64,000 bases of DNA from Candidatus Latescibacterota bacterium (lineage in GTDB: Bacteria; Latescibacterota; UBA2968). Numbering within the stretch: the first letter of the stretch is position 1; the number at the start of each line of letters is the position of its first letter. The stretch spans positions 1,632,001 through 1,696,000 of the forward strand of contig OZ244960.1 of NCBI GenBank assembly GCA_965222605.1, in the 5' to 3' direction. Below are positions 6,307 through 34,181 of the stretch, in pieces. The notes under the pieces were generated by a model, which was not told where the DNA came from, searched no databases, and was given only the letters and a program-made list of their open reading frames with translations. The position numbers and the translations under genes are program-made.

Positions 6307-6312
6307 GAAATC

Positions 6313-6519: not shown

Positions 6520-6522
6520 TTC

Positions 6523-6957: not shown

Positions 6958-6990
6958 TCGCCCATGATTTTTGTAGTGTAAAAAACTTTC

Positions 6991-7083
6991 TGGATTGCGG
7001 CTTTAAGCCTGCCGCAATGACAAAGACACGAGCCTGCCCCGTAATGCCTGCCCCTGCCTGCTTTAAGCAGGGGCCGCGATGAC
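6991..7083. repeat. Composite REP-like palindrome cluster
   Basis: Hairpin ATTGCGGC/GCCGCAAT in a TGGATT...AATGAC frame; GCCTGCCCC twice; hairpin CTGCTT/AAGCAG; second GCCGCGATGAC. Confidence 0.6.
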
Positions 7084-7131
7084 GGCTTTCAGATTCAGCA
7101 CATGTAATAAAATAAACAACAGGAGTGCCAT

Positions 7132-7923: not shown

Positions 7924-7949
7924 AAACTGCATCCACAATCGCGTATCAT

Positions 7950-7990
7950 AAAAAGGTGGTCGTTATGCGAGCGCCTTTTTTTCTTTCTTT
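7950..7990 (+). terminator. Intrinsic terminator after apbC
   Basis: AAAAAGGTG..TCG/CGA..CGCCTTTTT imperfect stem followed by a T-rich run. Confidence 0.6.
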
Positions 7991-8105
7991 CTTGAAAACT
8001 ACACATTCGTTCAGTATATTTACTGCTGATTTCCGAAACCAGTCTTCCCGTTGGTGCGTCAAAGGTCTTGTAGATTTCAGGCATATTCCAACCTGTGAGG
8101 AATAA

Positions 8106-9329: not shown

Positions 9330-9486
9330 TGAGAGATTTATTGTTCGCGGCATAGGTTCGTGGCTGACGCAATCGCCGTCCCATGAACCTGTGTTGCCTG
9401 TCGTTGTGTGAAAATAGCGAATCGCAGACTTTTAATATGTGGGCGGTTCGCTGATTTTTTATGCGGAGCGATACATGGAGAACAAT

Positions 9487-13515: not shown

Positions 13516-13531
13516 CCGAACACCGTTGCCA

Positions 13532-13557
13532 GTAGGGGCGGATCCCTGTGTCCGCCC
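13532..13557 (+). repeat. GTAG-type REP element
   Basis: GTAG foot followed by the perfect hairpin GGGCGGA-N8-TCCGCCC just after the RND stop. Confidence 0.7.
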
Positions 13558-13802
13558 GTCCTAAAACAGGCGTCTTAAGGTATTGCGATACAGTAAGTTC
13601 CTTAAAAGTCCCACCCTCCCCCCGTCCCCTGCCGCACTGCCCGAGGTTTTTTTTCAATTGACTTTTGACAACTTTTTGTTTTCTTAAGCACTTGTAGTTT
13701 TTATGACAAAGCAAGCAAATACTCGGTAACTTTTTGGTCTTTTTTTCGTCTAACCTTTGTAACAACAATAGCCACCTCATTTGTAGAAATATGGAGAATT
13801 GG

Positions 13803-18625: not shown

Positions 18626-19123
18626 CTACGTCTTAAAATTCGGCCTTATAACAGAAGCTATTTCTTCCGCCCGTTCCCATGATACGGTTACCTTCTGCTT
18701 CATACCCCCATCTTTTGGCTGTAAGGCAGCGATATGCGGTGGTCCACTCCCCCAGTTGCTCAACTTACGACGCGGTACAACGTGAATGTGAAAATGCGGC
18801 ACTTCCTGCAAACTGGTCACGCCGTTATTCTGATACACAGTAATGCCATCCGGGTTAAACGTTTCTGTAAGTGCTTCTGCTGCTATTCGGACCGTCTTCA
18901 TAATTTCACGAGCCTCATCATCTGTCAGGTCTAATATCGTCGGCGCGTGTCGGCGAGGGATAACGAGAAGCTGACCGACTTCAAACTGCCTGGGATTGAG
19001 CAATGCAAGCGTCTTTTCAGTCGAATATATAACATGCCTCATTTCGCCGCGTCTGGCAACTATCTCACAAAATGGACAGGGATCCCACGTCGGCATCTCA
19101 AATGGGGCAACAGTATGACTCAT
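18626..19123 (-). CDS. HIT-family hydrolase
   Basis: CPFC and QEVPHFHIHVVPR histidine triad. Confidence 0.92.
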   Translation of the reverse strand: MSHTVAPFEMPTWDPCPFCEIVARRGEMRHVIYSTEKTLALLNPRQFEVGQLLVIPRRHAPTILDLTDDEAREIMKTVRIAAEALTETFNPDGITVYQNNGVTSLQEVPHFHIHVVPRRKLSNWGSGPPHIAALQPKDGGMKQKVTVSWERAEEIASVIRPNFKT

Positions 19124-19162
19124 CTTTATTCATCCTCATCTCGTCCGCCCTTGCCTGGTCTC

Positions 19163-19867
19163 CTACTGATGGAAGTCTAATAAAGCATCTATATATGCAC
19201 CAGTGGATTTATGCAAGCGTTCTATCCTCTCTTTGGGAATAGGACCGTGATCTTCTTTGACACACAAATCAGATATGATGCGAATACCGACATATTTAAT
19301 CTTATTAATCGCACAAACATCCACAATAGCCGCTGATTCCCAATTCACGGCTATGGCTCCACTCTCTACGGCGATTCTATCTCGCACTTCGCGATCATAA
19401 ACATCCATATCTCCGCAAATCACAGAAGCTTCCCTGAGCTTAGCACCCGAGTTTTTTGATAAACACTCTGCGAACCTGTCTATCGAAGCGGAGGAGGCAT
19501 TGAAAAGACGCGATCTCCATACATCTTGCTCGCTCTGAATCTCCGGCCTATTTGGTACATCGTGCTCAGAGACGCCAGTAACTACGACAATGTCTCCAAT
19601 ATTTAAAAATTCTATTAAGCCACCCGCAAATCCAAACTCGAAAAATGTATCTACTTGATACCTGTCTATTATCATTTGGCACATCGAAGCCGCACGCACT
19701 TTGCCCATACCCGACTGCATGACGACCCATTTCTCATCTCCATCGCACCACGCAAACTGCAACCTGCCATTCCAGTCAACCGAAGCGCCCGCATCTCGCC
19801 CCAAAACATCGAGAAGCGCCCGCGTCTCATCCGCATAAGCTGTCATAACGCACAGCCTCGAACTCAT
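19163..19867 (-). CDS. MTA/SAH nucleosidase-like protein (PNP_UDP_1 family)
   Basis: SGMGKVRAA, GFAGGL...IGDIVV, WESAAI..VC, IRIISD. Confidence 0.85.
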   Translation of the reverse strand: MSSRLCVMTAYADETRALLDVLGRDAGASVDWNGRLQFAWCDGDEKWVVMQSGMGKVRAASMCQMIIDRYQVDTFFEFGFAGGLIEFLNIGDIVVVTGVSEHDVPNRPEIQSEQDVWRSRLFNASSASIDRFAECLSKNSGAKLREASVICGDMDVYDREVRDRIAVESGAIAVNWESAAIVDVCAINKIKYVGIRIISDLCVKEDHGPIPKERIERLHKSTGAYIDALLDFHQ

Positions 19868-20319
19868 AAATTTGTCTCCATTTTCATCGCAACAAAATAT
19901 TCGTTAAAACCTATCTTCCTCCAAAAGTTCTGGCCTTCCGAGTTAGTTGCCACGACATCGAGAGCTATAGATTGAATGTCTTTGGGAAAACGTGTGTCTA
20001 TTAGAATCTGGAAGGCCGCTTTACCCAAGCCAAGGCGACGATGAGAGCGTTCAATATAATACTGACGAATATAAATTACCGCCTCCTCTGGATAATAGTA
20101 GTCCTTACGCTCTTGATACACGGAATAGCCTATCATCTGTCCATCACTCAGAAACACATCTACCGTCCATATATCGGTATCTAACCACTCGCGAAATCGT
20201 ACCTCATATTCTTCCAGTGAAAACGGATTCTCGCTGCCCTGGTCATCCACGAGGCAACTATTCATTATAGCCAACTGAGGCAAGTCACTTAATTGCGCAG
20301 CGCGAACGGCGACTGACAT
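19864..20319 (-). CDS. GNAT acetyltransferase
   Basis: YIRQYYI...HRRLGLG, N..GQNFWRKIGF. Confidence 0.88.
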   Translation of the reverse strand: MSVAVRAAQLSDLPQLAIMNSCLVDDQGSENPFSLEEYEVRFREWLDTDIWTVDVFLSDGQMIGYSVYQERKDYYYPEEAVIYIRQYYIERSHRRLGLGKAAFQILIDTRFPKDIQSIALDVVATNSEGQNFWRKIGFNEYFVAMKMETNL

Positions 20320-20332
20320 GATACCCTCACTG

Positions 20333-20809
20333 TCATTTTTTTAATAATTTCTCAAAAGAAACAATAGTCATTCTGTCGTTAACCTCTTGAGTGGCTCCCG
20401 TTCTCCTGTAGCCCATTTTCTCATAAAAATAACAGTTGCCTTCCTCTTGTAGAATCGTCTCAAGTTCCCAGCACTCCGCATCAACAACATCCTCAACAAG
20501 CGCGATAGCATCCTGACCATACCCCTTCCCCTGATGCTCTGGGACGATAAACATGGGACTAATCCTCGCTCGCCTGATCTCGTCATCGTAGATAATTCTG
20601 ATCGCTCCGATTTGGACGCCATCAAGCATAATAAAATAGTAAGTGGTATGGTGTTGCTTTAATCTATCAATAATACGTTCAACGTCTTCATTAGCCGGAT
20701 TCGTTCCGTAATCCCGATACTTGCGGAGCAATGGCAGAAATGACCCAACCTGAAGCCGGTGAATAGCTTCCGCGTCTCTCATAGATGCTTTGTTTAGACT
20801 GATTCGCAT
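20333..20809 (-). CDS. GNAT acetyltransferase
   Basis: ISPMFIVPEHQGKGYG, N..FYEKMGY. Confidence 0.9.
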   Translation of the reverse strand: MRISLNKASMRDAEAIHRLQVGSFLPLLRKYRDYGTNPANEDVERIIDRLKQHHTTYYFIMLDGVQIGAIRIIYDDEIRRARISPMFIVPEHQGKGYGQDAIALVEDVVDAECWELETILQEEGNCYFYEKMGYRRTGATQEVNDRMTIVSFEKLLKK

Positions 20810-20828
20810 AAGTAGAAATATACCTCTT

Positions 20829-21380
20829 TCACCTGTTTTTACGAGCCTCCCATTCACAACGCAATAACCCGCACCACACCATGTTTTTAAATTCGCCTCT
20901 CAGATAGATATCCTGGCGCAGGATACCTTCACGGACCATGCCGATCTTCTCCATTACCCGGAGAGAACCGACATTTCTCTCATCGGCCGAGGCTCGAATG
21001 CGATTCAACTCTGGATAGACCGAAAACGCTTCATCGCTAACAGCACCCGCAGCTTCCGTGGTCAACCCCTTTCCCCAAAAGCGTCGGGCAATGCTATAGC
21101 CCATTTCGCCAACGCGATTATCAAAATCAAACCTTATATTGATTCCACCAATAACAGAACCAGCGTGTTCAATCGCCCAGGATGCGCGTGATTTACGATC
21201 CTTCAACAGTTGACCCGCCAAAAATTTTTCGGCATCTGCTCTCGTGTAGGGTTGGGGAACCGGAAGAAAGCGTGCCCATTCCGGATCGGATGCGTATAAC
21301 AGGATATCTTCAACATCCTTGAGGCTAAACAGCCTGAGCTTCAACCGGTCTGTTTTAATAAGTTCTGACATCATTCTCAT
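20829..21380 (-). CDS. RimJ/RimL-type GNAT acetyltransferase
   Basis: TDRLKLR, EMGYSI...FWGKGLTTEA, N.GS.RVMEKIGM..EG. Start approximate. Confidence 0.9.
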   Translation of the reverse strand: MRMMSELIKTDRLKLRLFSLKDVEDILLYASDPEWARFLPVPQPYTRADAEKFLAGQLLKDRKSRASWAIEHAGSVIGGINIRFDFDNRVGEMGYSIARRFWGKGLTTEAAGAVSDEAFSVYPELNRIRASADERNVGSLRVMEKIGMVREGILRQDIYLRGEFKNMVWCGLLRCEWEARKNR

Positions 21381-21542
21381 ATCTCTTTTTTTGAATGTCA
21401 TGAGTCAGAGCGCATCCTCTTTGTTTCCATACATTGGCTGCATATATTAAGCCTATTTCAGGACTGCTGAGGATTGGAACTAAAATTTCCGGGCACAAAC
21501 TTGCGGCTCCCGCCATAGAGGCTTGTGCCAACACAATGACAT

Positions 21543-21616
21543 CTCCTTATAGATAGTGTTTTTACCACGAAGATTTTCTAATCTTGTGACAATTCTAGCG
21601 GCAAAATGGTTTCTAT
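21543..21616 (-). promoter_or_regulatory. Conserved leader copy B (promoter-like boxes plus RBS)
   Basis: Minus strand ATAGAAACCAT-N8-TAGAATtGTCACAaGATTAG...GTAAAA..CTATCT..GGAG; homologous to 31518-31593. Confidence 0.65.
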
Positions 21617-21655
21617 ATTGCAAAGAATGTTCACGATACAACTCAAGAGGGCTAC

Positions 21656-21670
21656 GGAGATTTGCGATAT
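21656..21670. repeat. 15-bp direct repeat, copy 1
   Basis: GGAGATTTGCGATAT, identical to 22149-22163. Confidence 0.85.
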
Positions 21671-21817
21671 CCCGATCCGTCATCCGCGTAGCGAGTTGGG
21701 CGGAGGCGCGATTGCGCCACAACAAAAACCGCTGTATTACACAATTGCAACACAGCGTACTGAACCTGGACAGCTTAATTCCATCTCATTGAACATTCAG
21801 TGGGAATAGACTACCGC

Positions 21818-22078
21818 TCACGCAGCTGTGGTCTGCCTAATTTCCCAACCGGGGAAAACGAGAACAGCCGGATGGCATTGCAACGCTCGAGCGAGTACCT
21901 TGGCGCGCTCAACCCCAACCTGGATGCGGTTATTTTCGATGGCCGAAATAGTCGATTGGGGAATGCCTGTACGCCTGGCGAGTTCATTTTGACTAAGTTC
22001 CTGAAGTTCGCGGATAATACGGACGGATTCTCCTACGGATACCTCAACCTGCTTCTTGGCACGACGGTAATTTTCCAT
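21818..22078 (-). CDS. XRE/HigA-like HTH antitoxin
   Basis: VSVGESVRIIRELQELSQNELA..TGIPQSTISAIEN..RAKVLARAL..HPAVLVFPGW. Confidence 0.88.
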   Translation of the reverse strand: MENYRRAKKQVEVSVGESVRIIRELQELSQNELARRTGIPQSTISAIENNRIQVGVERAKVLARALQCHPAVLVFPGWEIRQTTAA

Positions 22079-22082
22079 TTCA

Positions 22083-22154
22083 CTATCTCCGGTAATCATG
22101 AGCTGTTAGACTTACAACCTGTACGAGAACTCTGCTGGCTTCGGTTTTGGAGAT
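22083..22154 (-). pseudogene. 3' remnant of a RelE/HigB-like toxin
   Basis: Startless frame ISKTEASRVLVQVVSLTAHDYRR* directly upstream of the antitoxin; HDYRR tail typical of this toxin family (from recall). Confidence 0.65.
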
Positions 22155-22163
22155 TTGCGATAT
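22149..22163. repeat. 15-bp direct repeat, copy 2
   Basis: GGAGATTTGCGATAT, identical to 21656-21670. Confidence 0.85.
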
Positions 22164-22172
22164 ACCAAACCA

Positions 22173-22880
22173 TTACGAAATGTGCATATCCACACCGTAT
22201 ATCTGCAATCCCAGCTTTTCTGCGACGCGTTGAGAGGCTTTATTATCCCAGGAAGTACTATAAAGAGGAATACGACCTTGTTCTCTGACAACGCCAGCCC
22301 ATCCTGCCACGACCTGTGCTGCATAGCCCTTCCCCCGATGCGACAGTAAGGTATCTACCCCTGCCTCCTCTGCCTTCTCTGATTTCCGCACGCTCTGGCA
22401 AACCGATACTGCTTTGTCTCCCTCGACAATTGCCACAACAGGCTGGCAGTGATCCAATTCAGGAATCAGGTCGGAAAAACCAAATTCAAGGAGATATGCT
22501 GTACTCCGATCAATCCGCACGACCTCGGGGGAGCCCCCAAGCGAGTCTGGAAATCGATAGGCGGGGCCAATCCATTGCTGGTCCGTTGTAATATATGGTG
22601 TAAGCAAATCCTTCACTGTAGCCAGACACGAGGGGCTTTCATATAAATTGCCAGACGATAGTTGAGCTTGAATGATCGCCTGGACTCGCTGACAGAGCGC
22701 CTCTGGCACATCATAGCGAAAACGCACGACCGAACCGCCTCGAGTTCGTCCGATGAAAACAACAGGAGCAGGATGGTCTTCCGGTCGATACGGTTCATTT
22801 ATGAAACGGAGACGTTCATCATGATCATGAACAAAGAGCGTACCAACCTGAATTTTCATGAGTGATAAATCGGAAATCAT
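22173..22880 (-). CDS. GNAT acetyltransferase (C-terminal GNAT domain)
   Basis: EAGVDT...HRGKGYA, YSTSWDNKASQRVAEKLG. Confidence 0.88.
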   Translation of the reverse strand: MISDLSLMKIQVGTLFVHDHDERLRFINEPYRPEDHPAPVVFIGRTRGGSVVRFRYDVPEALCQRVQAIIQAQLSSGNLYESPSCLATVKDLLTPYITTDQQWIGPAYRFPDSLGGSPEVVRIDRSTAYLLEFGFSDLIPELDHCQPVVAIVEGDKAVSVCQSVRKSEKAEEAGVDTLLSHRGKGYAAQVVAGWAGVVREQGRIPLYSTSWDNKASQRVAEKLGLQIYGVDMHIS

Positions 22881-23311
22881 AGATTTGAGTCACGTGATCG
22901 TATCAAAGTATCTATCCCGTATTTTCCTGAGCCGATAACCACAAACATCCCTGTAATAACCAGGTACAGAAACGCCATCTCCTTCGTGCTAAATGGATCC
23001 GCTGCGTGTTGAAAGAACCCGGCCACCAACATGGTAGAGCAGATAAAAAACGCCCCTGGTCGCGTGAGTAATCCCAGTGCCAGCAATAGCCCGCCGCCAA
23101 ACTCCGAAAAGGCTGCTACCCAGGCAAAAAACTCGGGAACAGGAAACCCCAGATCTCCCGTAATGGTCACAAACCGCTCGGAAGGTGGGAGCTTCCCCAA
23201 TCCATGTCCCAATGCCATACTCAACCCTACAAACACCCGGAGAATCGCCAATCCGACATTTGCCGGGATCGACTCAATAACCGCTCCGCCAAATAGAAGT
23301 CGCTTAATCAT
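22877..23311 (-). CDS. DoxX-family membrane protein
   Basis: LRVFVG...HG.GK, EFGGGLLLALGLLTR, GSGKYGID. Confidence 0.92.
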   Translation of the reverse strand: MIKRLLFGGAVIESIPANVGLAILRVFVGLSMALGHGLGKLPPSERFVTITGDLGFPVPEFFAWVAAFSEFGGGLLLALGLLTRPGAFFICSTMLVAGFFQHAADPFSTKEMAFLYLVITGMFVVIGSGKYGIDTLIRSRDSNL

Positions 23312-23401
23312 ATTCCACCTCCTAATTAAGGTTCACCGCCCTTTCCTCAGAGAGTTCAATACCTTATTTCCACTCCTGAGCATTACATACCCACTATTCA
23401 A

Positions 23402-24031
23402 TCATTGTTCAGAGTTCGCAATAGAATTTTTGAGACCCTCGTTTTTAGAATCTTCAAGAGGATGAAGGTCAATCGGTGTGAGAACCCCGTAAAAGCCGTA
23501 TTTAATACCCGAGTGATCTCCTCTCCCCGGAGGGAAATATTCTTCTATAAGCGCCAATAATTGACGACCAAATTCCGATGCCTGTTCTTCAGAAAGTCGT
23601 GCGCGATTGTGGTTAACTGACATCTGAAATGTCGAGCTATATAAACCCTCGGCAGCTTCGCGAAATGCCTGATTGAACTGACTGACAACATCAGTCGGCA
23701 TGGCCTCGGCAATTTGGTCATTCGTCGAAAGAGTCTCTCGAACGCGAATTCTGCCCGCCGCTGGCAAACAAAACCACTCCTGGAGACCAGCCTCATCTTC
23801 CTCCAAATGCACAACACCTGTTTGCGCCAGTCGTTTCAAGTGATACAGCACCCGGGCATCGGTAACGTCCAACGCCTGCGAAATCTCCGCCACCGACTTC
23901 CCGTCTCCAAGAATTTCGAGGATGCGCCAGCGAAGTGGATCGGCGAGTATATTCGCACGATCATCTTCGACAACGAGCACTGTGTCCTTTAACGCTGTGG
24001 TCGGGAAGGTCAACTCGCGCCATGTACTCAT
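23402..24031 (-). CDS. ArsR-like winged-HTH regulator
   Basis: LADPLRWRILEIL...SVAEISQAL...VLYHLKRL. Confidence 0.82.
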   Translation of the reverse strand: MSTWRELTFPTTALKDTVLVVEDDRANILADPLRWRILEILGDGKSVAEISQALDVTDARVLYHLKRLAQTGVVHLEEDEAGLQEWFCLPAAGRIRVRETLSTNDQIAEAMPTDVVSQFNQAFREAAEGLYSSTFQMSVNHNRARLSEEQASEFGRQLLALIEEYFPPGRGDHSGIKYGFYGVLTPIDLHPLEDSKNEGLKNSIANSEQ

Positions 24032-24097
24032 TCAAATTCTCCAGTCGTATAGTGGTATAATTAAACCAGATCCGCGTGATCAGGGCTTAACCTCATA

Positions 24098-26191
24098 TCA
24101 ATCCTTAAGATATTGATTGAACCAGTTGAGCACGCTCTCGTAATAATCCCTGGTATCCTCAGCTAACCAATTAGTCATAACATGGCCTTCACGTCGATAT
24201 TCTCGCATTTCCACTCGCTTGCCAAGTCGCCTGAGACCGAGGTATGTCTCACGTGCATTCACCGATCCAGGCACATCTTTGGTTCCGCATATAACCAACA
24301 CCGGCGCTTCGACCTGGTCGAAAGCAAAGAGCGGCGAGTTCTTAATATAGGTATCTCGTTTCTCCCATAGACTTCCACCATTTCGCGCTTGCTTTCCCTC
24401 GCACCACCCTATTCTCTGTACATCTACAAAATAGGTACTGGTCATGTTGATTCCGAACGGCGCATTGGCAACTGCGGCGCGGAAAGCCCGTGTATGGGAA
24501 ACCAATGCCATCACACCATAAGCACCATAACTATGCCCCCAAACACCGATTCGATTTCTGTCGGCAAAACCCATTTCTATGACACGATTAACAGCGGGCA
24601 GTGTTACGCCCACAATCTGCTCAATTGGATTATTGTCCTCCATAATCGAATCTGGATATAGTGCAGCATAACCGACGCTGGTGAGTAACCGCGCTTCCGA
24701 GTTATACCTATTACTCCTTGAAAAATTACTCCCAGGATAGATAGTAACAATCAGGGGTAGTCGGTCTTCTGCCCGAGCGTCTCTGGGAAGGAAAAGAGCC
24801 GCCTTCTGTACACGACCATTCGCGTCCTTAAACTCTATGACTTTGCGCACCGGTTGTTCCACATCCCGTCGCCAGGGATTGATCTTAAGTAGTGTCGTTG
24901 CCTCCCCACTGTCGAGAGGGTACGCATGTACCGCCTCTCTGCCGCGAGCAAAAACGAAACGTTCGGATGCTATCAGAGTGAACTCATCAGGACTTGAAAG
25001 TGGCGCGGGACAAACCGTGGTCGTCTCGCCTGAAACGGAATGGATGCGGACGATATATTTCAAGTTATCGCGTTTGTCAATTGCGTGGGCAAGAATATTG
25101 CCCTGATCATCCGTATGAAGAACTGATTCTCCGTGCCGTTGCGCAATCACATTTATCCTCATCTGATTGTCAGTCGAATCCTTCAACAACCGACGATTCT
25201 TACCGTCCTCAATAGATAGATGATACAAACATCCTTTTTGCAGCCATATAAGGCGCGTGCCGTCATCGGTCCACCAGGGTATTTGAAAGTTACCCAGGGA
25301 CGAAGTGAATTCTGTCACCATTGTAGGCTCAGTTGATCCGTCCGCTGGTGCGAAGTAGAGATGTTGAGGGTCACCCCACTTTCCACCGGTGACATAGGAA
25401 ATTGTCTGACAATCGGGCGACCACGAAAAACGACAGGCATAACTGTTGACCGGTACATTCCGAGCGACCGCATAAGGCTCGCGACCATCAAATGGGATGA
25501 TATTCACATCGGCAATAGTGTGGGGACGATCCACCGGATATGCAATTTTATTGAGAAGTGCTACAGCTTGCCCATCAGGAGCCACACGTGGGACAGTGAA
25601 CGTGAGACCGGACGCAAACTCCGTCACAATGCCTGAGCTTACCTCCACAACACCGACGCACTCACCAATACCCGACTGTTTAAAGAAAGATCTATGCTGG
25701 CCTGATGCGGACTGTTCCGGAGTGTATGATTGTACAATGATGTCAGAAGATTTTGTAGAGACACGGGCACTCGGGATCAACGGCACGATGATGCGGCGAC
25801 CGTCAGGAGTCCATTGAGGAACGGCGCCCCACCCGCGGATCACAGCGTTGGATACGAGGAACACTTCGTGCGTCTGTCTGTTCCATAATCCAACACAGGC
25901 ATGAGCATCTTGTGTGACGACATACGCAGCAAGCGTTTGTCCATCTGGAGACCAGCGACCTGCCCAGCTCATCCGTAGATCAGAAAACGGCTCTATGGAC
26001 TCACCTGTTTCAACGTCTATAAGGACAATGTATGCGCCGTTCTCACCATAATTGGTATCGCCTGGCAAGCGACGCTTCCCCTGACTGAGTGTTACAGCAA
26101 GCAATCCGCCATCAGGCGAAATATCCCACGGGCAACGACTGGTAAACTGGTTGACGTTCAACAAGTCATCAACAGTGAATGGTCGCAACAT
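24098..26191 (-). CDS. S9 prolyl oligopeptidase-family peptidase
   Basis: WSPDG beta-propeller repeats; GHSYGA nucleophile; G..D and EGH catalytic motifs. Confidence 0.9.
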   Translation of the reverse strand: MLRPFTVDDLLNVNQFTSRCPWDISPDGGLLAVTLSQGKRRLPGDTNYGENGAYIVLIDVETGESIEPFSDLRMSWAGRWSPDGQTLAAYVVTQDAHACVGLWNRQTHEVFLVSNAVIRGWGAVPQWTPDGRRIIVPLIPSARVSTKSSDIIVQSYTPEQSASGQHRSFFKQSGIGECVGVVEVSSGIVTEFASGLTFTVPRVAPDGQAVALLNKIAYPVDRPHTIADVNIIPFDGREPYAVARNVPVNSYACRFSWSPDCQTISYVTGGKWGDPQHLYFAPADGSTEPTMVTEFTSSLGNFQIPWWTDDGTRLIWLQKGCLYHLSIEDGKNRRLLKDSTDNQMRINVIAQRHGESVLHTDDQGNILAHAIDKRDNLKYIVRIHSVSGETTTVCPAPLSSPDEFTLIASERFVFARGREAVHAYPLDSGEATTLLKINPWRRDVEQPVRKVIEFKDANGRVQKAALFLPRDARAEDRLPLIVTIYPGSNFSRSNRYNSEARLLTSVGYAALYPDSIMEDNNPIEQIVGVTLPAVNRVIEMGFADRNRIGVWGHSYGAYGVMALVSHTRAFRAAVANAPFGINMTSTYFVDVQRIGWCEGKQARNGGSLWEKRDTYIKNSPLFAFDQVEAPVLVICGTKDVPGSVNARETYLGLRRLGKRVEMREYRREGHVMTNWLAEDTRDYYESVLNWFNQYLKD

Positions 26192-26293
26192 ATTTATCTC
26201 TCCTGGGGTTTACTGCTGTTGAGTTCCGTTAAAGACGACTGATGGTTTGGGTTCTGATACAACCACATCTGGCAAATGTGGCCCCTTGGGATT

Positions 26294-27313
26294 TCATTGC
26301 AGACTCTCGAGATCGGAAACCGCCGCACCCAGAAATTCAGGCGTTTTAGGATGTAGAAGACGACCGCAGTCCCAAAAAAACCTTATTCCCCGGAGATTCG
26401 CGACAATTGACAGTAACTTCTCCTCTACAGGCGATAACTCCATAAGGGGCTTTTCGATAACGGCATTGTAGGAAGATCGAAAAGCATCAACATATCCGGG
26501 TTCGGAATGCTCTGAACTCGGCCTGGCCACATATTCTCCCTCCGCTTGCCGCAGGTCATGAGCCGCGATCCCCCAGCCAGCCGATTGGAAATCATGGACG
26601 TTTGAAATACGCAGTGCATTGCCGTTTTCCACAAGCACATTGTGGAGTCCTGCTTCGCCCCACAGAAATACGTTGTCGCCATGCACCCTGACTTCGGGCA
26701 CCGGGTCCGTGGCGACCAATAGCCTGCCCCAGAGTTCCGGCAGAGTTGCTGCCAGGGAGAAAGCCAACTCCTCGTCTCCAAACATTGCTTCCCGGATCGT
26801 CACTTCCCACGACGCAAGATCTCTCGTTTTCTGTGATTGAAGCTCTTGCGGACATTGTTGCCTATGCACATGTGCAACAGTCTGTCCCAGAAGCGCGCCC
26901 AAATGCAATCGCTGTGCCCGAGATGCGCCCAGATAGTAACTGAGACCCGACTCCCCCGGCTCACATGGGATCAAAAGACATTCAAAAGCAAGTGGTTCTC
27001 CATCGTCGTCGTACACCAGAGATTCAGACACCGGAACACCGGCGATACCGCGCAATGCCCTTGTGGCGACGAACTCGGTTTTCAAACTGAAACTGAGGGA
27101 TTGGCGAAACTGGGTCTTCAAGATTACCCGGCCGTGGGCGCGAGTCTCCACCTGAAAAATCTGGTTTATGAAATTGGCTTCCAAACGCTTGATTGACCAG
27201 GACGAGCTGAAACCATGTTTCTCAAAAAGCACATCGATCTGTGCGCGGGTTACATCCGGCTTATCGCGGAATAAAGCTCGGATATCCTTCATGCTGGCGA
27301 GTCTTGTGACCAT
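26294..27313 (-). CDS. Aminoglycoside phosphotransferase (APH)-like protein with a degenerate catalytic loop
   Basis: N..F...ILK, E..A...L...GVPV, A.VH, WGEAGLHNVLV, HDFQSAGWG...DL. Confidence 0.7.
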   Translation of the reverse strand: MVTRLASMKDIRALFRDKPDVTRAQIDVLFEKHGFSSSWSIKRLEANFINQIFQVETRAHGRVILKTQFRQSLSFSLKTEFVATRALRGIAGVPVSESLVYDDDGEPLAFECLLIPCEPGESGLSYYLGASRAQRLHLGALLGQTVAHVHRQQCPQELQSQKTRDLASWEVTIREAMFGDEELAFSLAATLPELWGRLLVATDPVPEVRVHGDNVFLWGEAGLHNVLVENGNALRISNVHDFQSAGWGIAAHDLRQAEGEYVARPSSEHSEPGYVDAFRSSYNAVIEKPLMELSPVEEKLLSIVANLRGIRFFWDCGRLLHPKTPEFLGAAVSDLESLQ

Positions 27314-27366
27314 GCGGTGCTATCTCCGCGGGATATTCTGACTAATGGGATTTCATTTTGACTCAT

Positions 27367-27795
27367 TCACACGTTGATCAAATCGATAGCAGAAGGACCG
27401 GTTTGTACCTTGTAATATGTCCTTGTCTTATCCGCAAAATAGTCCTTGATACGCTCGACCTGCTTCGGGAAGGTGTTACTCGGGATACGATCTAATTGAA
27501 AGTATTCGATCTGGTCCGCCTCATCGGTAAGTTGGACCGTGCCTCCCGTAACCTGGCAAAAAAATGACAATACGATCTCATTCTTATCTGGTTTACTATA
27601 CACCCCACTAAGATAGACGGGCACTGCTCTCAAACCCGTTTCTTCTTCTATCTCCCGCACTAGAGCAGCCCACGGACTCTCGCCAGCCTCAACCCCACCA
27701 CCTGGCAAATTCCACAGATCGAAGTCGCGTCGGTGGCACAACAAGACGCGGTCTTTGTCATCGGTAATGATTCCAAAAACGCCAATTGTGAACAC
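27367..27795 (-). CDS. NUDIX hydrolase
   Basis: WNLPGGGVEAGES...A..REIEEETGL Nudix box. Confidence 0.95.
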   Translation of the reverse strand: MFTIGVFGIITDDKDRVLLCHRRDFDLWNLPGGGVEAGESPWAALVREIEEETGLRAVPVYLSGVYSKPDKNEIVLSFFCQVTGGTVQLTDEADQIEYFQLDRIPSNTFPKQVERIKDYFADKTRTYYKVQTGPSAIDLINV

Positions 27796-27857
27796 GATCA
27801 AATTCCCTTTTTGCTAACTCGAACATATCCCAACTCAGCTTCGGAGATACCCATACT

Positions 27858-28376
27858 TCAAATAAAATCGAGATATAAACGACTGGATTGAATACCCGTG
27901 TTGTTTTGATATTTGCCACTTTCGTAGGTCTCGAAATCGCCATCCAGGGTATGATAGTAAATTTGACAGATTTCCACATTTGGATAGATCCGGATGGGCC
28001 GAATACAAAACATCTCCAAAGTCCAGTAGCCAGCAAATCCCACATCACCAAAACCTGCGGTCACGTGTACAAACAGCCCCAATCTGCCCACTGATGACCG
28101 CCCCTCGAGCATGGGGACATAATTATTCGTTTGGGTGAATTCTGCTGTCCTGCCAAGATAGAGCGTTTGGGGTTGCATCTCGTACCCATCATCCGAAATT
28201 TGAATGGATCGCGTGCGATTTTTCTTTTTCATATCGAGAACGCCATCCTCGTATATCATGAGTTCATTGGCAAGTGAAAGATTATAACTATTTGGATTGA
28301 GCCTGGCAGGATCAAACGGCTCAATAATAATGTCTTTTCCCATTCGCTCGTGAATCATTTTTCCCGACAAAATCAT
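27858..28376 (-). CDS. dcd: dCTP deaminase
   Basis: MILSG, LNPNSYNL, EGRSSVGRLG..VH.TAGFGD.GF.G.WTLE, ICQIYY, KYQ. Confidence 0.93.
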   Translation of the reverse strand: MILSGKMIHERMGKDIIIEPFDPARLNPNSYNLSLANELMIYEDGVLDMKKKNRTRSIQISDDGYEMQPQTLYLGRTAEFTQTNNYVPMLEGRSSVGRLGLFVHVTAGFGDVGFAGYWTLEMFCIRPIRIYPNVEICQIYYHTLDGDFETYESGKYQNNTGIQSSRLYLDFI

Positions 28377-28390
28377 AACGCGCGCCCCGA

Positions 28391-28873
28391 CTATTCTACT
28401 TCTGGAAGATCTCTGTACATTATGTGCATATAGTCTGTAAATCCATGCTTTCTCCAAAATGAATATCCAACTGTATTCATAGAAGCCACCCGCAGTTCGA
28501 CTCTGTCTATTCCCCGAAACCGAAACCAATCCAACACCTCTTTTACCATCAACTCTCCAAGTCCTTTTCTCCTGTGTTCAGAAGAAACAGCCAAATCTTC
28601 AATAGTGCCACAGGTTTGCTTGACGAATACGGGAGGATATTTGTCAATTCTTGCTATTCCGAAGCCCATTGGCTTTGTATTCTCGACCGCTATAATCACA
28701 AGGGCATCCTCAGCCGCGATCAGTCTTGCCAGATTCTTACCCATGCTTTCTTCCGCATCATCAGACAGGGTATATCTCGAATCAAACGGAACATGAAAAT
28801 CCATGAGTTCTTTCCAGATCTCGAGTATAGCGGGTATGTCAGATTTGCGGGCTTTAACAACTTCCATTTTCAT
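28391..28873 (-). CDS. GNAT acetyltransferase
   Basis: IEDLAV...HRRKGLG, N..GYSFWRKHGF. Confidence 0.9.
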   Translation of the reverse strand: MKMEVVKARKSDIPAILEIWKELMDFHVPFDSRYTLSDDAEESMGKNLARLIAAEDALVIIAVENTKPMGFGIARIDKYPPVFVKQTCGTIEDLAVSSEHRRKGLGELMVKEVLDWFRFRGIDRVELRVASMNTVGYSFWRKHGFTDYMHIMYRDLPEVE

Positions 28874-28886
28874 TCTCTCCAATATA

Positions 28887-29726
28887 CTATGCGTCATTGA
28901 CCACCTGACCCAAATTGGCTTCCTCAGTCACCTGCGTATATACTTCTGTTTTTGAAACCTCCGAAATTGCGAAATCGAGAAAATCCATTGCCTCCTGTCT
29001 CGCATCCAATTCAATACCGTATTGCCACTCCTGAGCACTGCCTACCAAATTACGCCATCTCTCTCCATAGTTCTCCTTCACCCATGATGCAGCCATCTTC
29101 TTCGAGCCAACTACGGAGCAAATCACAGTATGCAATATTCGACACAGATTCAGGATAAAATACGATTCTTGGTGGCTATCCTTAAAATACTCCGAATTGG
29201 ATTTTTTGGGCACCCATTCCTGAAACAAATCGCGCACGCATGCTTTTCGCACATCCTCAATATCAACCGGGGGCGACAGCTTTTTAAAGCTCGGACCAAA
29301 TAGCGCGATGGAATGACCATAAAGAAAATATTTGTTGATTATCCATTCATTCCCATAAGGTGCCTCTGCATAAAGAGTACAATCACCACCCCAATACCAT
29401 GGTCGAGGCTCCGTTGGAGGCATAACGCCTGGGAGCATTTTAACAGGCGTGTAAGAACACTCTAACCGCCGCGCCCATTTCTCGAACTTCTCTTCCATCT
29501 CTCTGTGTAAACGCCCAATTGAATTGAGTTCGCATCGAGAAACAGGTCGATGCACAATCACAGTAATATCAATATCACTGCTATGGTAGTTAAACGCCCC
29601 ATAGGACAGCGAGCCAGTCAGATATATCCCGAGTACGTTTCCATCGAGAACGGGAATAACGCTTCTAACAAAAAAATCTATAATCTCGTTTACATCGGGA
29701 TATTTTGTAAGGTTGCTTGCAATCAT
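28887..29726 (-). CDS. Aminoglycoside adenylyltransferase-like nucleotidyltransferase (DUF4111-type C-terminus)
   Basis: GIYLTGSL..G.F...SDIDI Pol-beta motif; Y.ILNLCRILHT...SK..AA.W. Confidence 0.85.
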   Translation of the reverse strand: MIASNLTKYPDVNEIIDFFVRSVIPVLDGNVLGIYLTGSLSYGAFNYHSSDIDITVIVHRPVSRCELNSIGRLHREMEEKFEKWARRLECSYTPVKMLPGVMPPTEPRPWYWGGDCTLYAEAPYGNEWIINKYFLYGHSIALFGPSFKKLSPPVDIEDVRKACVRDLFQEWVPKKSNSEYFKDSHQESYFILNLCRILHTVICSVVGSKKMAASWVKENYGERWRNLVGSAQEWQYGIELDARQEAMDFLDFAISEVSKTEVYTQVTEEANLGQVVNDA

Positions 29727-29748
29727 TGAATTGTCTTCATCTATACTG

Positions 29749-30297
29749 TCACGCCAACTTGCGTTTCATGAATATGGCAACTTCACCCTCAACATCACGG
29801 TTGGTATAATAGGATAGATCCACACCATCGACTTCAAAACCGACACTGCGATAAAAGTCAATGGCTGGCACATTGGTATTTTGAGTCTCACAAACCAAAA
29901 TCCTCAACCCTTCAGCTTTGGCGATTTCTGCTACCTCCTCCATCAATTGCCTACCGACACCCTTTCTCCTATATGACGCAGCAACCCCAAATTCCCGGAT
30001 CCATAGACTCCTATTCCACTCTATCTTTTCCGAAATAGCGATACCCACAAGCTGACCAGCGTCGTAGGCTCCCAACGACAGACCACGATTGACAAGTTCG
30101 CTGTAGTTCCTGAAATCCTCATCTAACATTGACCAGCGTTTCACATAGGATTCATTCAGCTTTTGACGCTTCAGAATAAAGCAGAACTCATCAGCAGTCT
30201 CAGTCTTCGAGACATGGTATCTATCAGTTGAAACATAGCCATCCATTATTTGTAGATCTTCGCGCCGTAACTGCTTTAATTTTCTGATTTCGATCAT
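29749..30297 (-). CDS. Streptothricin acetyltransferase-like GNAT
   Basis: WNRSLWI..FGV...YRRKGVG, ETQNTNVPAIDFY..GF..DG.D...Y. Confidence 0.82.
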   Translation of the reverse strand: MIEIRKLKQLRREDLQIMDGYVSTDRYHVSKTETADEFCFILKRQKLNESYVKRWSMLDEDFRNYSELVNRGLSLGAYDAGQLVGIAISEKIEWNRSLWIREFGVAASYRRKGVGRQLMEEVAEIAKAEGLRILVCETQNTNVPAIDFYRSVGFEVDGVDLSYYTNRDVEGEVAIFMKRKLA

Positions 30298-30332
30298 GTA
30301 TTTCTAAGCTCTTTCGCCTAATATCCATAGGT

Positions 30333-31157
30333 TTATTTTGATCTATTATCTTCCAGCCAGCCGACCGTGAAATCCACGACATCACGCTGTGGCATGAACT
30401 GGCAACTCGCGAGACCAACCCTGCCCTGACGCACAACTTTCCCTGCATCCGACCGCAAAAAATCCTCACCTATGCGATCAAAATCCGAACTATCGATATC
30501 AACATCTTCAAAGGTAGCCCAGGTCCTTGAACCCGACGCAGAGATCGGAGCGCCCTCCTGCACAATGCGCCTGGTAGAAAAAGTCGCCCGATATTCCGCA
30601 AGGTGCATAGACGTATTGTTTCCAGGCCCCACACCGAGAAGAAGGACAAAACCGTGCAAATCGTAGATTCTCGCAAGCGGTGAATGCTCACCCATGCCAA
30701 AAGCCAACGAATGATCATTTACGACATACGACGCTTGAGGCCCACGCGCACAAAATGAGTCCAGCGGATGTGAACTACGAAGAACCCCTCTCTGCTTGCG
30801 AAATGTCTCCGCGATAATACCCATAGCACGAGTTGGCGTAAGATCTGGATCGTAAGCCGGCATATTCTCGCGTATTACCGGCCACCACGACTCGGGGACG
30901 GGCGGACTTTCCCACTTGCTCGGCTCGCTCAGACCGGATGAGTGCGCGGGCATTACAAGCGTTCCAGTAGATCCCAAAACTCTCTGAAGCGCGATAACAA
31001 CCGCCACAGATCCTCCGCACACCCATCCCATCGCACTCAAAGACGAATGCACCAACACGACCATCCCCGGTCCAACGCCAAGCGCACTAAGATCCGTCTG
31101 CAACGATTCAATCGTAGCGGGCGTTTTTGTTTTTTGAACAACCTTGTCTTCACTCAT
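30333..31157 (-). CDS. AAC(3)/YokD-family N-acetyltransferase
   Basis: VLVHSSLSAMGWVCGG, GTLVMP, MGIIAETFR, RSSHP..SF, SPLARIY, NTSMHLAE. Confidence 0.93.
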   Translation of the reverse strand: MSEDKVVQKTKTPATIESLQTDLSALGVGPGMVVLVHSSLSAMGWVCGGSVAVVIALQRVLGSTGTLVMPAHSSGLSEPSKWESPPVPESWWPVIRENMPAYDPDLTPTRAMGIIAETFRKQRGVLRSSHPLDSFCARGPQASYVVNDHSLAFGMGEHSPLARIYDLHGFVLLLGVGPGNNTSMHLAEYRATFSTRRIVQEGAPISASGSRTWATFEDVDIDSSDFDRIGEDFLRSDAGKVVRQGRVGLASCQFMPQRDVVDFTVGWLEDNRSK

Positions 31158-31167
31158 TATACGTCAC

Positions 31168-31512
31168 CTATTTCGCTGCAATCGCGACCATCTCCACAAG
31201 CGTCTCTCCCTCCAGCTTAACCTCCACACAGGCGCGCTGAGGCCAATTGTCGGCACCAATCCATGTGTCCCAAACCGCGTTGAGGACGGGTTTCTTTGAC
31301 ATATCTGTGATATAAATCGTGACGGAAAGAAGACAAGACTTATCGGTCCCAGCCTCGGCGAGATTCGCGTCCAACTGTTCGAGTGCCTGTTGAGTCTGAC
31401 CCTTGAGGTCTGCGGACACATCCGGTGCGGTGACAACTGTATAGACGATGCCATTGTGCTCAACGGACTTGCTGCGGCCAAATGCCTTTCCCGGATATCG
31501 ATTGATGGCCAT
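31168..31512 (-). CDS. RidA/YjgF-family protein (YoaB-like)
   Basis: QT.Q.L..LD..L.EAGTDK, N.VWD.W....PQRACV. Confidence 0.9.
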   Translation of the reverse strand: MAINRYPGKAFGRSKSVEHNGIVYTVVTAPDVSADLKGQTQQALEQLDANLAEAGTDKSCLLSVTIYITDMSKKPVLNAVWDTWIGADNWPQRACVEVKLEGETLVEMVAIAAK

Positions 31513-31517
31513 AAATG

Positions 31518-31593
31518 CTCCAATAATAGATAGCGTTTTACGACAGAATTTTTACTAATCCTGTGACGATTCTATTAACAGGATGGTTTCTAT
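31518..31593 (-). promoter_or_regulatory. Conserved leader copy A (promoter-like boxes plus RBS)
   Basis: Minus strand ATAGAAACCAT-N8-TAGAATcGTCACAgGATTAG...GTAAAA..CTATCT..GGAG, ending 5 nt before the RidA ATG; homologous to 21543-21616. Confidence 0.7.
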
Positions 31594-31677
31594 GATACAC
31601 GCGATAAATTCTTCTGGAGGGGTTGGCGCGATTGGCGTAAGAGTCCGCGGATTGCCAAACGCAGACCGAAGGATGAA

Positions 31678-31707
31678 GGGAGGTTTGGGTGGGTTGGGTA
31701 AGGCGGG
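31678..31707 (+). other. Canonical G-quadruplex motif
   Basis: GGG-AGGTTT-GGG-T-GGG-TT-GGG-TAAGGC-GGG (five G3 runs). Confidence 0.6.
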
Positions 31708-31739
31708 AATTGGTGTATTAAACGCTGGTAGCCTCTTTC

Positions 31740-31814
31740 TCACTTTATCGGCTGGAGGCGGTCATAATCCTCAGCACGAGTTGAAAATTGAACACTTTGA
31801 GATTTCTGATTCAT
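31740..31814 (-). pseudogene. 5' stub of a class I SAM methyltransferase-like gene
   Basis: 24-codon MNQKSQSVQFSTRAEDYDRLQPIK*; F...A..YD is a common methyltransferase N-terminal pattern. Confidence 0.45.
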
Positions 31815-31897
31815 AGTATAATACCCTATCACTCCGTGTACAAAACATCGGAAAGACGAACTCTATTTCCTAAAGGCTATATTAATTGCATCTTCAC

Positions 31898-31984
31898 AAC
31901 TTGCAGAAAAGCGGTGTTGCTCAGGAGATGATATAACTGAAAGTATTCGATCTGGTCCGCCTCATCGTTGAGGTTGATCGTGTC
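31898..31984 (-). pseudogene. Internal fragment of a NUDIX paralog
   Basis: Gap-free 87-nt alignment to 27457-27543 with a 30-nt identical core (31938-31967 = 27497-27526; DEADQIEYF). Confidence 0.85.
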
Positions 31985-32004
31985 TCATGTTTTCGTCCCC
32001 ATGT

Positions 32005-32202
32005 TTAATCTGACTGGCGTACTTCCTCACGACCTTCATACACTGCCAATTCTTCATGTAGGCGTGCAATCATCTTGCGGATACCTGCCTTAGTGAACCC
32101 TTTAGAGCCAATCGGGTGGCTTTTCTGTAACCGCGCCAATCGTTCTTCAAGATGACGAATCTCTTCTTGAGCCTTTTGATATTCTGTCAGGTTAGCAATC
32201 AT
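32005..32202 (-). CDS. Small helical hypothetical protein coupled to a DUF6932-like gene
   Basis: 65-aa ORF with ATGA overlap to the upstream gene; amphipathic helices. Confidence 0.75.
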   Translation of the reverse strand: MIANLTEYQKAQEEIRHLEERLARLQKSHPIGSKGFTKAGIRKMIARLHEELAVYEGREEVRQSD

Positions 32203-32627
32203 AATTCAATCTCCACAAGTCCTTTGAGACGTCCGTCAACTTCGCGAGTACGGCTGAAGAACGCGACCCAATCATCCCAATCCGTTTCATCTTCGGCTGC
32301 GAATATTTCTTCAGGATGGCGTGTTAGGAGCATGTCTTCGAGTTCAAGGGCAGCTTCAATACCTTTTTTGATTTGGTGCTCAAAATCGGGTGGAAGCCAA
32401 ATAACAGCATCAATGTCATTGGGCTCATCTTTTGCTGTGACAAAACTCCCATCAATCAACAGCCGAATCGCTCCAACTTGTCTGGCGATTACCACCCAGC
32501 GTCTCATCCTGAGAACCAAATACCTGCGCCTCCGGTTCAGTGTTCCGAATCGGAAGGTGGCTTGTGCTTCCGTAGCGAAATGCAATCCTTCGGGCAAGTA
32601 ACCGTCAGATCGAAATTTTGGGATCAT
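32199..32627 (-). CDS. DUF6932-like protein (minimal nucleotidyltransferase-like)
   Basis: MIP.F..DG.LP.G.H and IDGSFVT.K.EPNDID motifs. Confidence 0.78.
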   Translation of the reverse strand: MIPKFRSDGYLPEGLHFATEAQATFRFGTLNRRRRYLVLRMRRWVVIARQVGAIRLLIDGSFVTAKDEPNDIDAVIWLPPDFEHQIKKGIEAALELEDMLLTRHPEEIFAAEDETDWDDWVAFFSRTREVDGRLKGLVEIEL

Positions 32628-32645
32628 CTGTTTCCATTGGAAGTT

Positions 32646-32804
32646 TCAGGTGGTTTCATTGACTTCGAGATATTCCTGTATGGCTATCTCAATATTTGCA
32701 ATTGCCTCATCTTTCGTATCTCCTTGCGACCAACAGCCTGGCAAGCCAAGCACTGAAATACTATAACCATCTTCGGATTTGTAAAGGGCAATTTTGTATC
32801 TCAT
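32646..32804 (-). CDS. Short, probably truncated, orphan HicB-like antitoxin
   Basis: GYS.SV.GLPGCWSQGDT.DEA..NI..AI.EYL; 52 aa; RBS AAGGAGG; no hicA alongside. Confidence 0.75.
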   Translation of the reverse strand: MRYKIALYKSEDGYSISVLGLPGCWSQGDTKDEAIANIEIAIQEYLEVNETT

Positions 32805-34135: not shown

Positions 34136-34181
34136 GGCCTCTCCTTGACATTCGACATTAGGCACATGCCCAGCCTCCCAT

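Follow-up and report, generated by a model that had tools for sequence, protein, structure and literature searches.

An integron-like array of small resistance- and detoxification-type genes beside hflX is probably an old, inherited variability hotspot dominated by gene loss

How does a bacterial chromosome come to hold a row of small, co-oriented accessory genes that resembles an integron cassette array, and does such a row capture genes? We addressed this question for a locus of a Candidatus Latescibacterota bacterium (GenBank assembly GCA_965222605.1, contig OZ244960.1; G000:C1 below), using a window of 64,000 nucleotides, positions 1632001-1696000 of this 6.34-Mb single-contig genome. The array runs between the GTPase gene hflX and the gene of an FAD-dependent oxidoreductase (Table 1). 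A first-pass annotation had described about 21 small, co-oriented minus-strand genes of resistance and detoxification type, with short or overlapping spacers, at least five interspersed gene fragments and no repeated attC site, integrase or insertion sequence (IS), and had proposed a gene-capture platform. The description holds up: open reading frames (ORFs) and Pfam domains give 21 intact minus-strand genes with this cargo, 19 of the 25 junctions between ORF calls are shorter than 60 bp or overlapping (the other six measure 66-261 bp), at least seven gene fragments are confirmed, and neither attC sites, integrase nor IS were found in the window by proxy attC tests and profile scans. The proposal itself fares less well. 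Comparison with relatives suggests that the array is probably an old, inherited variability hotspot, free of mobile elements, dominated by loss and shaped by illegitimate recombination.

Our comparison comprises 15 sister-species loci (13 loci with G handles, L069 and L071), some of which are cut by contig or locus ends. Orthologues of hflX are 86-97% identical in all 18 congeners first searched, and in the 15 sister loci the array lies at the same place, spanning hflX to the oxidoreductase or S9 peptidase where the locus reaches that far, with a backbone gene order that recurs apart from differences in presence and absence. No array genes lie within 20 kb of hflX in four distant congeners (hflX 84-87% identical), nor in five genomes of the neighbouring family, except for an AAC(3)-like gene of 34-35% identity in four of them. 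Of 20 congeners, 14 carry the ANT gene; beyond the genus, among 168 genomes of the phylum searched, its sole close homologue is in G107 (66%), with six others at 23-28%, and its wider family (DUF4111/AadA_C) grades to about 50% identity in metagenomes, including proteins labelled Chloroflexi. The array is a lineage-specific cluster of small-molecule-modifying enzymes in one subclade of this Poribacteria/'Latescibacterota'-labelled genus; it comprises acetyl-, adenylyl- and phosphotransferases akin to aminoglycoside-modifying enzymes, further GNATs, hydrolases of nucleotides and nucleosides, RidA, DoxX and toxin-antitoxin-like regulators.

Variation is confined to the array. Six closed relatives match the window by blastn with a cover of about 1.00 from 8 to 18 kb and, for the most part, of 0.9-1.0 from 34 to 64 kb; between 18 and 34 kb the cover is patchy, ranging from 0.00 to 1.00 in 2-kb bins. 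Lower bins in the flank occur in G002 (0.60 and 0.43 at 34-38 kb, 0.23 at 42-44 kb), G017 (0.46 at 36-38 kb) and G015 (0.35 at 62-64 kb). The variability hotspot is localized between syntenic core genes, and the first-pass annotation was right to expect a locus upstream of hflX that varies in content and, in part, in order. Over the window and its sister loci (16 loci), the pan-array amounts to about 50 unevenly spread families; those beyond the window's own set include a second NUDIX, a second APH and a second PNP gene, several methyltransferases, a creatininase, a subtilase, a fatty-acid desaturase, a Gp49/HTH (helix-turn-helix) pair and an F420-oxidoreductase-like gene.

The array genes are old residents. 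Median synonymous divergence (dS) of the window's genes from their orthologues spans 0.21-0.49 in 17 array genes, counting hflX, versus 0.30-0.47 in three flank genes, and the ratio of non-synonymous to synonymous divergence (dN/dS) is 0.06-0.28 in the array versus 0.05-0.14 in the flanks; both sets leave out the FAD oxidoreductase and RidA. Nucleotide identities of 83-96% for array genes and 89-93% for upstream flank genes likewise reveal no class of recent arrivals. Since dS in the array equals that of the flanking core genes, the array descends from the ancestor that these species share, and the surviving genes are under purifying selection.

Most of the variation, in turn, is loss. A census of the 16 loci gave, as distinct scars, 23 C-terminal stubs, nine N-terminal stubs, seven internal deletions with both gene ends retained and four frameshift splits; five of the 23 C-terminal rows were judged to be artefacts of query ORFs that were too long, so that 18 remain and the corrected total is 34 distinct loss scars plus four frameshift splits. 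This census shows that the variation derives mostly from differential loss: the ancestor shared by the roughly 16 species compared already had a larger array of about 50 families, of which each species lost a different subset by deletion. Lone C-terminal stubs, about twice as common as lone N-terminal ones, sit just upstream of the next intact gene, as do ArsR residues 176-209 before DoxX in G014, G009 and G003, GNAT4 residues 204-235 before APH in G014, GNAT311 residues 283-305 before HIT in G005, G011 and L071, and PNP residues 173-234 before HIT in L069.

Loss can be read at base level in the 56-bp spacer between dcd and NUDIX (to 27857). Alignment with G014 identifies it as the final ~50 nt of a second NUDIX gene (NUDIX2) that has been deleted here and is kept in 10 of 13 relatives; as the spacer is the 3' end of that gene, loss rather than insertion is shown here. 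The same NUDIX2-derived sequence holds the ribosome-binding site of the remaining NUDIX gene, a purine-rich stretch before its start, which suggests that 3' stubs persist since they carry the translation-initiation region of the next gene. Elsewhere in the window, N- and C-terminal pieces of a racemase flank an internal deletion of ~545 bp at 21548|21549, and a methyltransferase N-terminal stub at 31680-31811 corresponds to residues 12-57 of 252. Spacers also hold short pieces of array genes out of place: a NUDIX-like patch of 74 nt (31913-31986, 84% identical to the array gene), an ANT-like patch of 37 nt in the ArsR-DoxX spacer (23355-23391, 86% identical to part of ANT) and a racemase-like piece of 68 nt (31526-31593, 74% identical). 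Such short ectopic patches are expected under template switching. A direct repeat of 23 nt (21656-21678 and 22149-22171, 87% identical) flanks the module of c29 stub, XRE gene and terminator. A role as a recombination site finds no support: five of the 15 relatives have the motif, always upstream of the racemase and never beside XRE, and the only other trace was one weak match with four mismatches inside GNAT4 of G015.

Gene order is not fixed across relatives either, with XRE, APH and racemase shifting position. The c29-XRE pair follows NUDIX, GNAT4, racemase or unk210 depending on the species, at least four positions in all, and XRE retains 90-93% nucleotide identity irrespective of position. 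Only the window and L069 have APH upstream of S9-ArsR-DoxX; elsewhere it lies downstream of DoxX or DoxX-GNAT4. A PNP2-F420ox-APH2-unk210 block has the racemase on one side in some loci and on the other side in others, with pieces at both sites in G004. Blocks of homology are gene-sized and end at, or a few bases from, stop codons, recurrently across genomes, as at 22879 (DoxX), 26298 (APH), 27372 (NUDIX), 27863 (dcd) and 20343 (GNAT2).

Only two gains are documented in the window. The first is GNAT1, the one gain with an identifiable donor, which among the 16 loci is in the array only here. Eight of 20 congeners carry relatives of it at another locus, 82-85% identical in amino acids, and a paralogue lies at G000:C1:2055248 (82-84%). 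Homology to the donor-type GNAT locus of congeners covers 467 bp (window 20343-19877, minus strand; 86% nucleotide identity). It begins 24 nt ahead of the ATG and breaks off about nine codons short of the donor stop; the recipient PNP leader, which corresponds to the GNAT2-PNP spacer of G009, supplies the final codons and the stop. The downstream junction falls within a shared ATGAAA(A)WGGA, a microhomology of 10-12 nt, and the upstream junction shares 1-2 nt. The second gain is a foreign block of 1039 bp, with no relative in the genus, between the FAD oxidoreductase and the methyltransferase stub, where G007 has a 37-nt spacer. It replaces the last ~16 codons of the oxidoreductase and contains a HicB-like piece, DUF6932, a 65-amino-acid (aa) ORF and the NUDIX-like fragment; DUF6932 was not found in any of 20 other congeners. 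A DDE_Tnp_1 IS is present in one of the 16 loci (G015). Gains are few and non-site-specific. The microhomology route of gene addition and removal put forward by the first-pass annotation is borne out in part, by the 10-12 nt at one GNAT1 junction, but most differences are deletions.

We found no machinery for cassette-type capture. The integron integrase is absent above cut-off genome-wide, with a best TIGR02249 score of 88.4 bits against a threshold of 265, and 14 of 14 control genomes give similar sub-threshold Xer-type matches. A scan of 61 ORFs of the window found neither integrase nor transposase domains, and no integrase appeared among the families scanned in any of the 15 sister loci. 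In proxy tests that used core motifs in place of a covariance model, RYYYAAC...GTTRRRY pairs 50-160 nt apart numbered zero in 17.2 kb of array region; among 30 random genome chunks, 29 gave zero and one gave two, none of them structured. Short-range inverted repeats do not coincide with array junctions. The spacers have no repeat in common and are unique in the genome apart from the intra-array gene fragments, and a search for genome-wide REP/MITE-type repeats among them found none. A tRNA scan and Rfam at gathering thresholds returned nothing over the window. The trans-acting recombinase and reusable leader proposed in the first-pass annotation find no counterpart: no candidate recombinase, junction motif or shared leader was seen, and promoter-like sites in the array number 27 against 22.3 +/- 5.0 expected, hence without enrichment. 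A dedicated site-specific system is not involved.

Taken together, our preferred explanation is that deletions, a few same-orientation relocations and rare insertions would arise by illegitimate recombination at the level of microhomology, or by replication template switching. The relocations of the c29-XRE pair, APH and racemase may have begun as duplications of which one copy was later lost, and co-resident relatives probably contribute by exchanging variants across homologous flanks. Selection would then keep those events that spare ORFs, ribosome-binding sites and leading-strand orientation, and such a filter would produce the cassette-like look. The orientation itself is not peculiar to the array. 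The minus strand carries almost all genes from 17.3 to 64 kb, so that co-orientation is a regional property, and by genome-wide GC skew it is the leading strand of this replichore. A local GC-skew switch at ~17 kb was considered as a replication terminus and discarded, as the extremes of cumulative skew lie at ~0.05 and ~3.06 Mb and the window is mid-replichore.

Several observations pull the other way. Loss alone cannot explain the order changes of XRE, APH and racemase, the last of which is found to either side of a five-gene block, and these relocations are all in the same orientation with clean gene-end junctions, as a cassette-type mechanism would give. The four distant congeners without the array next to hflX also lack ANT, as judged with this query. 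The excess of C- over N-terminal stubs is not significant for 18 versus 9 (estimated p ~0.1), whereas the uncorrected 23 versus 9 gave p = 0.02. Each species is represented by one genome, and a comparison between species says little on event rates and on the direction of many changes. Finally, the apparent absence of attC sites rests on proxy tests rather than on IntegronFinder's attC model.

Metagenome contigs bear on both the assembly and the next explanation. Logan contigs of run X1 bridge, with 0 differences, at least the hflX-HIT-PNP, PNP-GNAT1-GNAT2, XRE-GNAT4, NUDIX-dcd-GNAT5-ANT and AAC(3)-RidA-stub junctions of the window, although X1 may be the source sample and its support for the assembly is not independent. 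A joint of 18103>35164 in the same run, with a side of 21 nt, was taken as spurious. Contigs of three runs carry a GNAT1-less junction (19890>20343), and this and other alternative junctions (APH/racemase, DoxX/APH and S9-less) occur in the same runs as the window form; the runs hold several relatives and the contigs were matched at 90% likeness, so that these junctions are not assignable to one population and carry no information on active excision; nor does missing cover in these runs count as evidence.

The alternative that survives best holds that the hotspot is maintained mainly by homologous recombination at the flanks and shared genes, the mosaic reflecting allelic replacement between co-resident species. 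The nearest relative does shift along the locus, from G014 for hflX (96% nucleotide identity) to L069 for APH, ArsR, DoxX and GNAT3 (94, 91, 96 and 93%) and G004 for GNAT2, GNAT5, GNAT6 and AAC(3), and the alternative-junction contigs imply that related variants share habitats. Half of the horizontal gene transfer hotspots in the survey of Oliveira, Touchon, Cury and Rocha (2017, Nat Commun 8:841, PMC5635113) lack recognizable mobile elements, and flanking core genes there recombine more often. However, donor identities in our star-like set of species differ by only a few percent, which makes the mosaic signal weak, and the alternative-junction contigs may belong to other species. Allelic exchange would, moreover, only spread stubs and relocations and not create them, and we consider it unlikely as the main driver.

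A more speculative idea, which we regard as doubtful, is that of 'accretion operons' that need no recombinase, in which ORF-sized segments would be stitched into a leading-strand operon by microhomology-mediated template switching. Inserts would borrow local start, stop and ribosome-binding signals, as GNAT1 took its last ~9 codons and stop, and later deletions would leave 3' stubs in which the following gene has its translation-initiation region. A second array in G000 and an array in another family of the phylum would have formed likewise. If true, accretion would give sponge-symbiont lineages an integron-like tuning of their chemical-defence gene set.

The platform of the first-pass annotation, a dedicated capture system free of attC sites that works downstream of a common leader, either through a trans-acting recombinase that has escaped recognition or through microhomology used in a programmed way, would account for gene-sized blocks that recurrently end near stop codons, for the single orientation of all modules despite the moves of XRE, APH and racemase, and for the arrival of GNAT1 as a single-ORF-sized piece; the cargo resembles integron cargo, and similar co-oriented runs exist at two further sites, L108 in the same genome and L147 in another family. 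Yet the junctions share neither sequence nor structure, the 61 ORFs scanned in the window include no recombinase gene, and the flank-equal dS marks array genes as old residents. Ragged scars, namely internal deletions and stubs 23-100 codons long, are plentiful and not what site-specific excision would leave behind; the GNAT1 segment came without its own 3' end, and its two junctions differ from each other. Clean ends and orientation are explained by selection for intact ORFs plus leading-strand bias. We therefore consider such a platform very unlikely, and its name overstated for a locus with flank-like dS, 34 scars and four splits, and only two gains.

Sedentary integron arrays and clusters of attC sites lacking integrases (CALINs) are long co-oriented rows of small accessory genes, rich in GNATs and toxin-antitoxin (TA)-like genes. 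Each cassette ends at its 3' side in an attC site, an imperfect palindrome of ~55-140 nt with R''/R' cores, at least two such sites defining a CALIN, and the integrase IntI, encoded next to the array or at least elsewhere in the genome, is a tyrosine recombinase with an IntI-specific insertion; an attI site and a Pc promoter precede the first cassette. Our array is like them in being compact, co-oriented, rich in GNAT and TA-like genes and variable in content between relatives, and unlike them in having no IntI, no attC-like sites, ragged stubs and genes as old as the flanks. That it is a degenerate sedentary integron or CALIN with eroded attC and integrase, as compactness, co-orientation, cargo type and internal TA-like genes might suggest, is extremely improbable, given that attC sites would not fit into 19 of 25 spacers, several spacers are 3' ends of deleted genes, no attC-like palindromes were seen, and no IntI remnant rose above cut-off in the genome or appeared in the scanned families of the 15 sister loci.

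Table 1. Features of the array and its anchors in the window (position 1 is the first letter of the window)
Feature	Coordinates	Strand	Basis or remark
hflX GTPase, conserved downstream anchor	17300..18616	-	Pfam GTP-bdg_N/M and MMR_HSR1
HIT-family hydrolase, 9 bp upstream of hflX	18626..19123	-	Pfam; in 15/15 sister-species loci
PNP_UDP / MTA-SAH-nucleosidase-like	19163..19867	-	Intact in only 2/15 sister loci; C-terminal stub in L069
GNAT1 ORF	19864-20319	-	Formed by captured segment 19877..20343
GNAT2	20333-20857	-	Conserved backbone gene
GNAT3 (Acetyltransf_3)	20829-21401	-	Conserved backbone gene
Asp/Glu-racemase-like remnants	21412..21743	-	Gene of 220-300 aa in relatives, matching PF01177
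Strong terminator-like hairpin, just downstream of XRE	21730..21757	-	Sole strong one on array strand
XRE-family HTH gene	21818-22099	-	Pfam
c29 (XRE partner) C-terminal stub, preceding XRE gene	22086-22154	-	Alignment to relatives; residues 70-92 of 93
GNAT4, AAC(2')-II-like (below cut-off)	22173-22880	-	Pfam, NCBIfam
DoxX	within 22173..23311, start/stop overlapping GNAT4 by 4 bp	-	Pfam
ArsR-type HTH	23402-24031	-	Pfam
S9 peptidase	24098-26191	-	Pfam
APH-family kinase	26294-27313	-	Pfam PF01636; no NCBIfam match
NUDIX hydrolase	27367-27801	-	Pfam
dcd, GNAT5, ANT (AadA_C/DUF4111), GNAT6, AAC(3)-like: best-conserved block	27858..31157	-	Pfam, NCBIfam, locus comparison
GNAT5	28391-28897	-	Pfam
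GNAT6, streptothricin-acetyltransferase-like	29749-30297	-	Pfam
RidA (Ribonuc_L-PSP), 114 aa	31168-31512	-	96% identical to G015 protein matching PF01042
Stubs: racemase-like small ORF o62/c28 and methyltransferase N-terminal piece	31526..31811	-	Alignment to relatives
Window-specific insertion, 1039 bp	31813..32851	-	Nothing homologous in any relative from 31747 to 32830
65-aa ORF	32005-32202	-	Inside window-specific insertion
DUF6932	32199-32627	-	Inside window-specific insertion
HicB-like N-terminal piece	32646-32843	-	Inside window-specific insertion
FAD-dependent oxidoreductase, conserved upstream anchor	32804-34291	-	Pfam, synteny in relatives

A few further properties of the array follow from its layout. 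Its GC content, 47.9% versus 51.0% for the genome, falls at the 7.5th percentile of 14-kb windows and is only mildly atypical. The genome has 28 matches to the GNAT profile PF00583, five of which fall in these 14 kb, and dcd is its sole dCTP deaminase. The terminator segment, about 45 nt long, is present twice in G002, G005 and G011. A frame of 119 aa that overlaps RidA (31164-31523) is also open in relatives because the DNA itself is conserved; only the 114-aa frame is RidA.

What the cargo does can be approached through profile scores. No array protein reaches the NCBIfam curated cut-off of a named resistance family: scores against cut-offs are 194.2/270 for AAC_3, 214.6/390 for AAC(2')-IIb and 50.6/340 for ANT(9). 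At the domain level, array proteins do belong to PF02522, PF12746, PF13427 and PF01636, and dcd is the sole protein to pass its own NCBIfam model (112.2 vs 92.8). A complete type II TA module of the HicAB or XRE-partner kind was not found, with no HicA domain among the ORFs scanned; the HicB-like ORF covers only profile positions 1-47 of 123, and a complete Gp49/HTH pair exists only in relatives. PADLOC matched 5 of 21 proteins at E <= 1e-4, namely HIT (ThsC, 99 bits), NUDIX (PDC-S07), DUF6932 (PDC-M63A), and XRE and ArsR, the last two through generic HTH, control-protein and Csa3 models only. No complete system was found, and these matches give a reading as a defence island only generic backing. 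Judged from its protein families, the array may be a variable intrinsic 'resistome/detox' locus beside an efflux operon and hflX. Intrinsic resistomes inherited vertically in environmental bacteria are reportedly exemplified by a cave Paenibacillus. Like such resistomes, the array holds chromosomal genes for antibiotic-modifying-enzyme-like proteins without mobile elements, conserved in related species; it appears to differ in being clustered in one variable array and in scoring below curated family cut-offs.

The efflux operon is of RND type (HlyD-type adaptor, AcrB-type pump and outer-membrane factor; 8106-15179, plus strand). It converges on hflX, so that array, hflX and efflux pump form a single neighbourhood. 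A second HflX paralogue, 48-50% identical, exists in 12 congeners; in G000 the hflX query returned the array-adjacent hflX and distant GTPases only. A smaller variable spot lies at window positions 4000-8000, where blastn cover in the six relatives is 0.00-0.88. It encodes a PIN-domain protein (4573-5094), an ORF with HSDR_N only (5407-6306) and a HicB-like ORF (6523-6957), and its content looks TA- or defence-like.

Similar gene runs occur at other places. L108 (G000:C1:5421001-5441000) is a second, looser cluster, mostly on one strand, with four GNATs, two methyltransferases, an APH, two MFS transporters and a 2'-5' RNA ligase-like gene. L147 (G107:C1:4051812-4071811), in another family of the phylum, is an analogous co-oriented run of ~17 small genes that includes at least five methyltransferases, GNATs, a 46% AAC(2')-like gene, the 66% ANT, a glyoxalase, a HAD gene, ankyrin-repeat proteins and SIR2. 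Clustering of such small modifying-enzyme genes seems to be a habit of these genomes. An ankyrin-repeat protein is also encoded in the window, at 40750-41454 on the minus strand, and the G107 array has two ankyrin-repeat genes; eukaryote-like repeat proteins such as these are a hallmark of sponge symbionts.

Host-associated bacteria are known for pseudogene decay and a deletional bias. The array resembles such decay in its many internal deletions, frameshift splits and eroding stubs, and is unlike genome-wide decay in that it is confined to 14 kb, with the neighbouring 45 kb intact and the survivors under purifying selection. Among known phenomena, it fits the definition of a mobile-element-free hotspot. 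In the survey of Oliveira, Touchon, Cury and Rocha (PMC5635113), 27% of hotspots lack any integrase or transposase, and hotspots are described as variation confined between syntenic core genes, with high gene turnover and adaptive accessory genes. Our locus is similar in these respects, and the window likewise lacks integrase, transposase and tRNA. It differs from the hotspots described there: they are strain-level, whereas here the variation is between species and consists mostly of ancestral content being lost, and the array is one compact, co-oriented, operon-like row with a conserved backbone order.

We found no account of this locus in the literature on Poribacteria under aminoglycoside and pangenome/acetyltransferase topics. 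Its closed genomes, from an uncultured lineage of sponge-symbiont type, indicate that an array with the looks of an integron can arise and vary without integron machinery, and its anatomy is documented here to the base, with loss stubs that keep the next ribosome-binding site and one gain fused into local signals. For annotators, this means that cargo and co-orientation alone do not justify inferring a capture system. For the biology of these bacteria, the locus is a candidate intrinsic resistome in which genes for aminoglycoside-, kasugamycin- and streptothricin-modifying-enzyme-like proteins stand by hflX and an RND pump, and its species-specific content may reflect differing chemical environments in different hosts.

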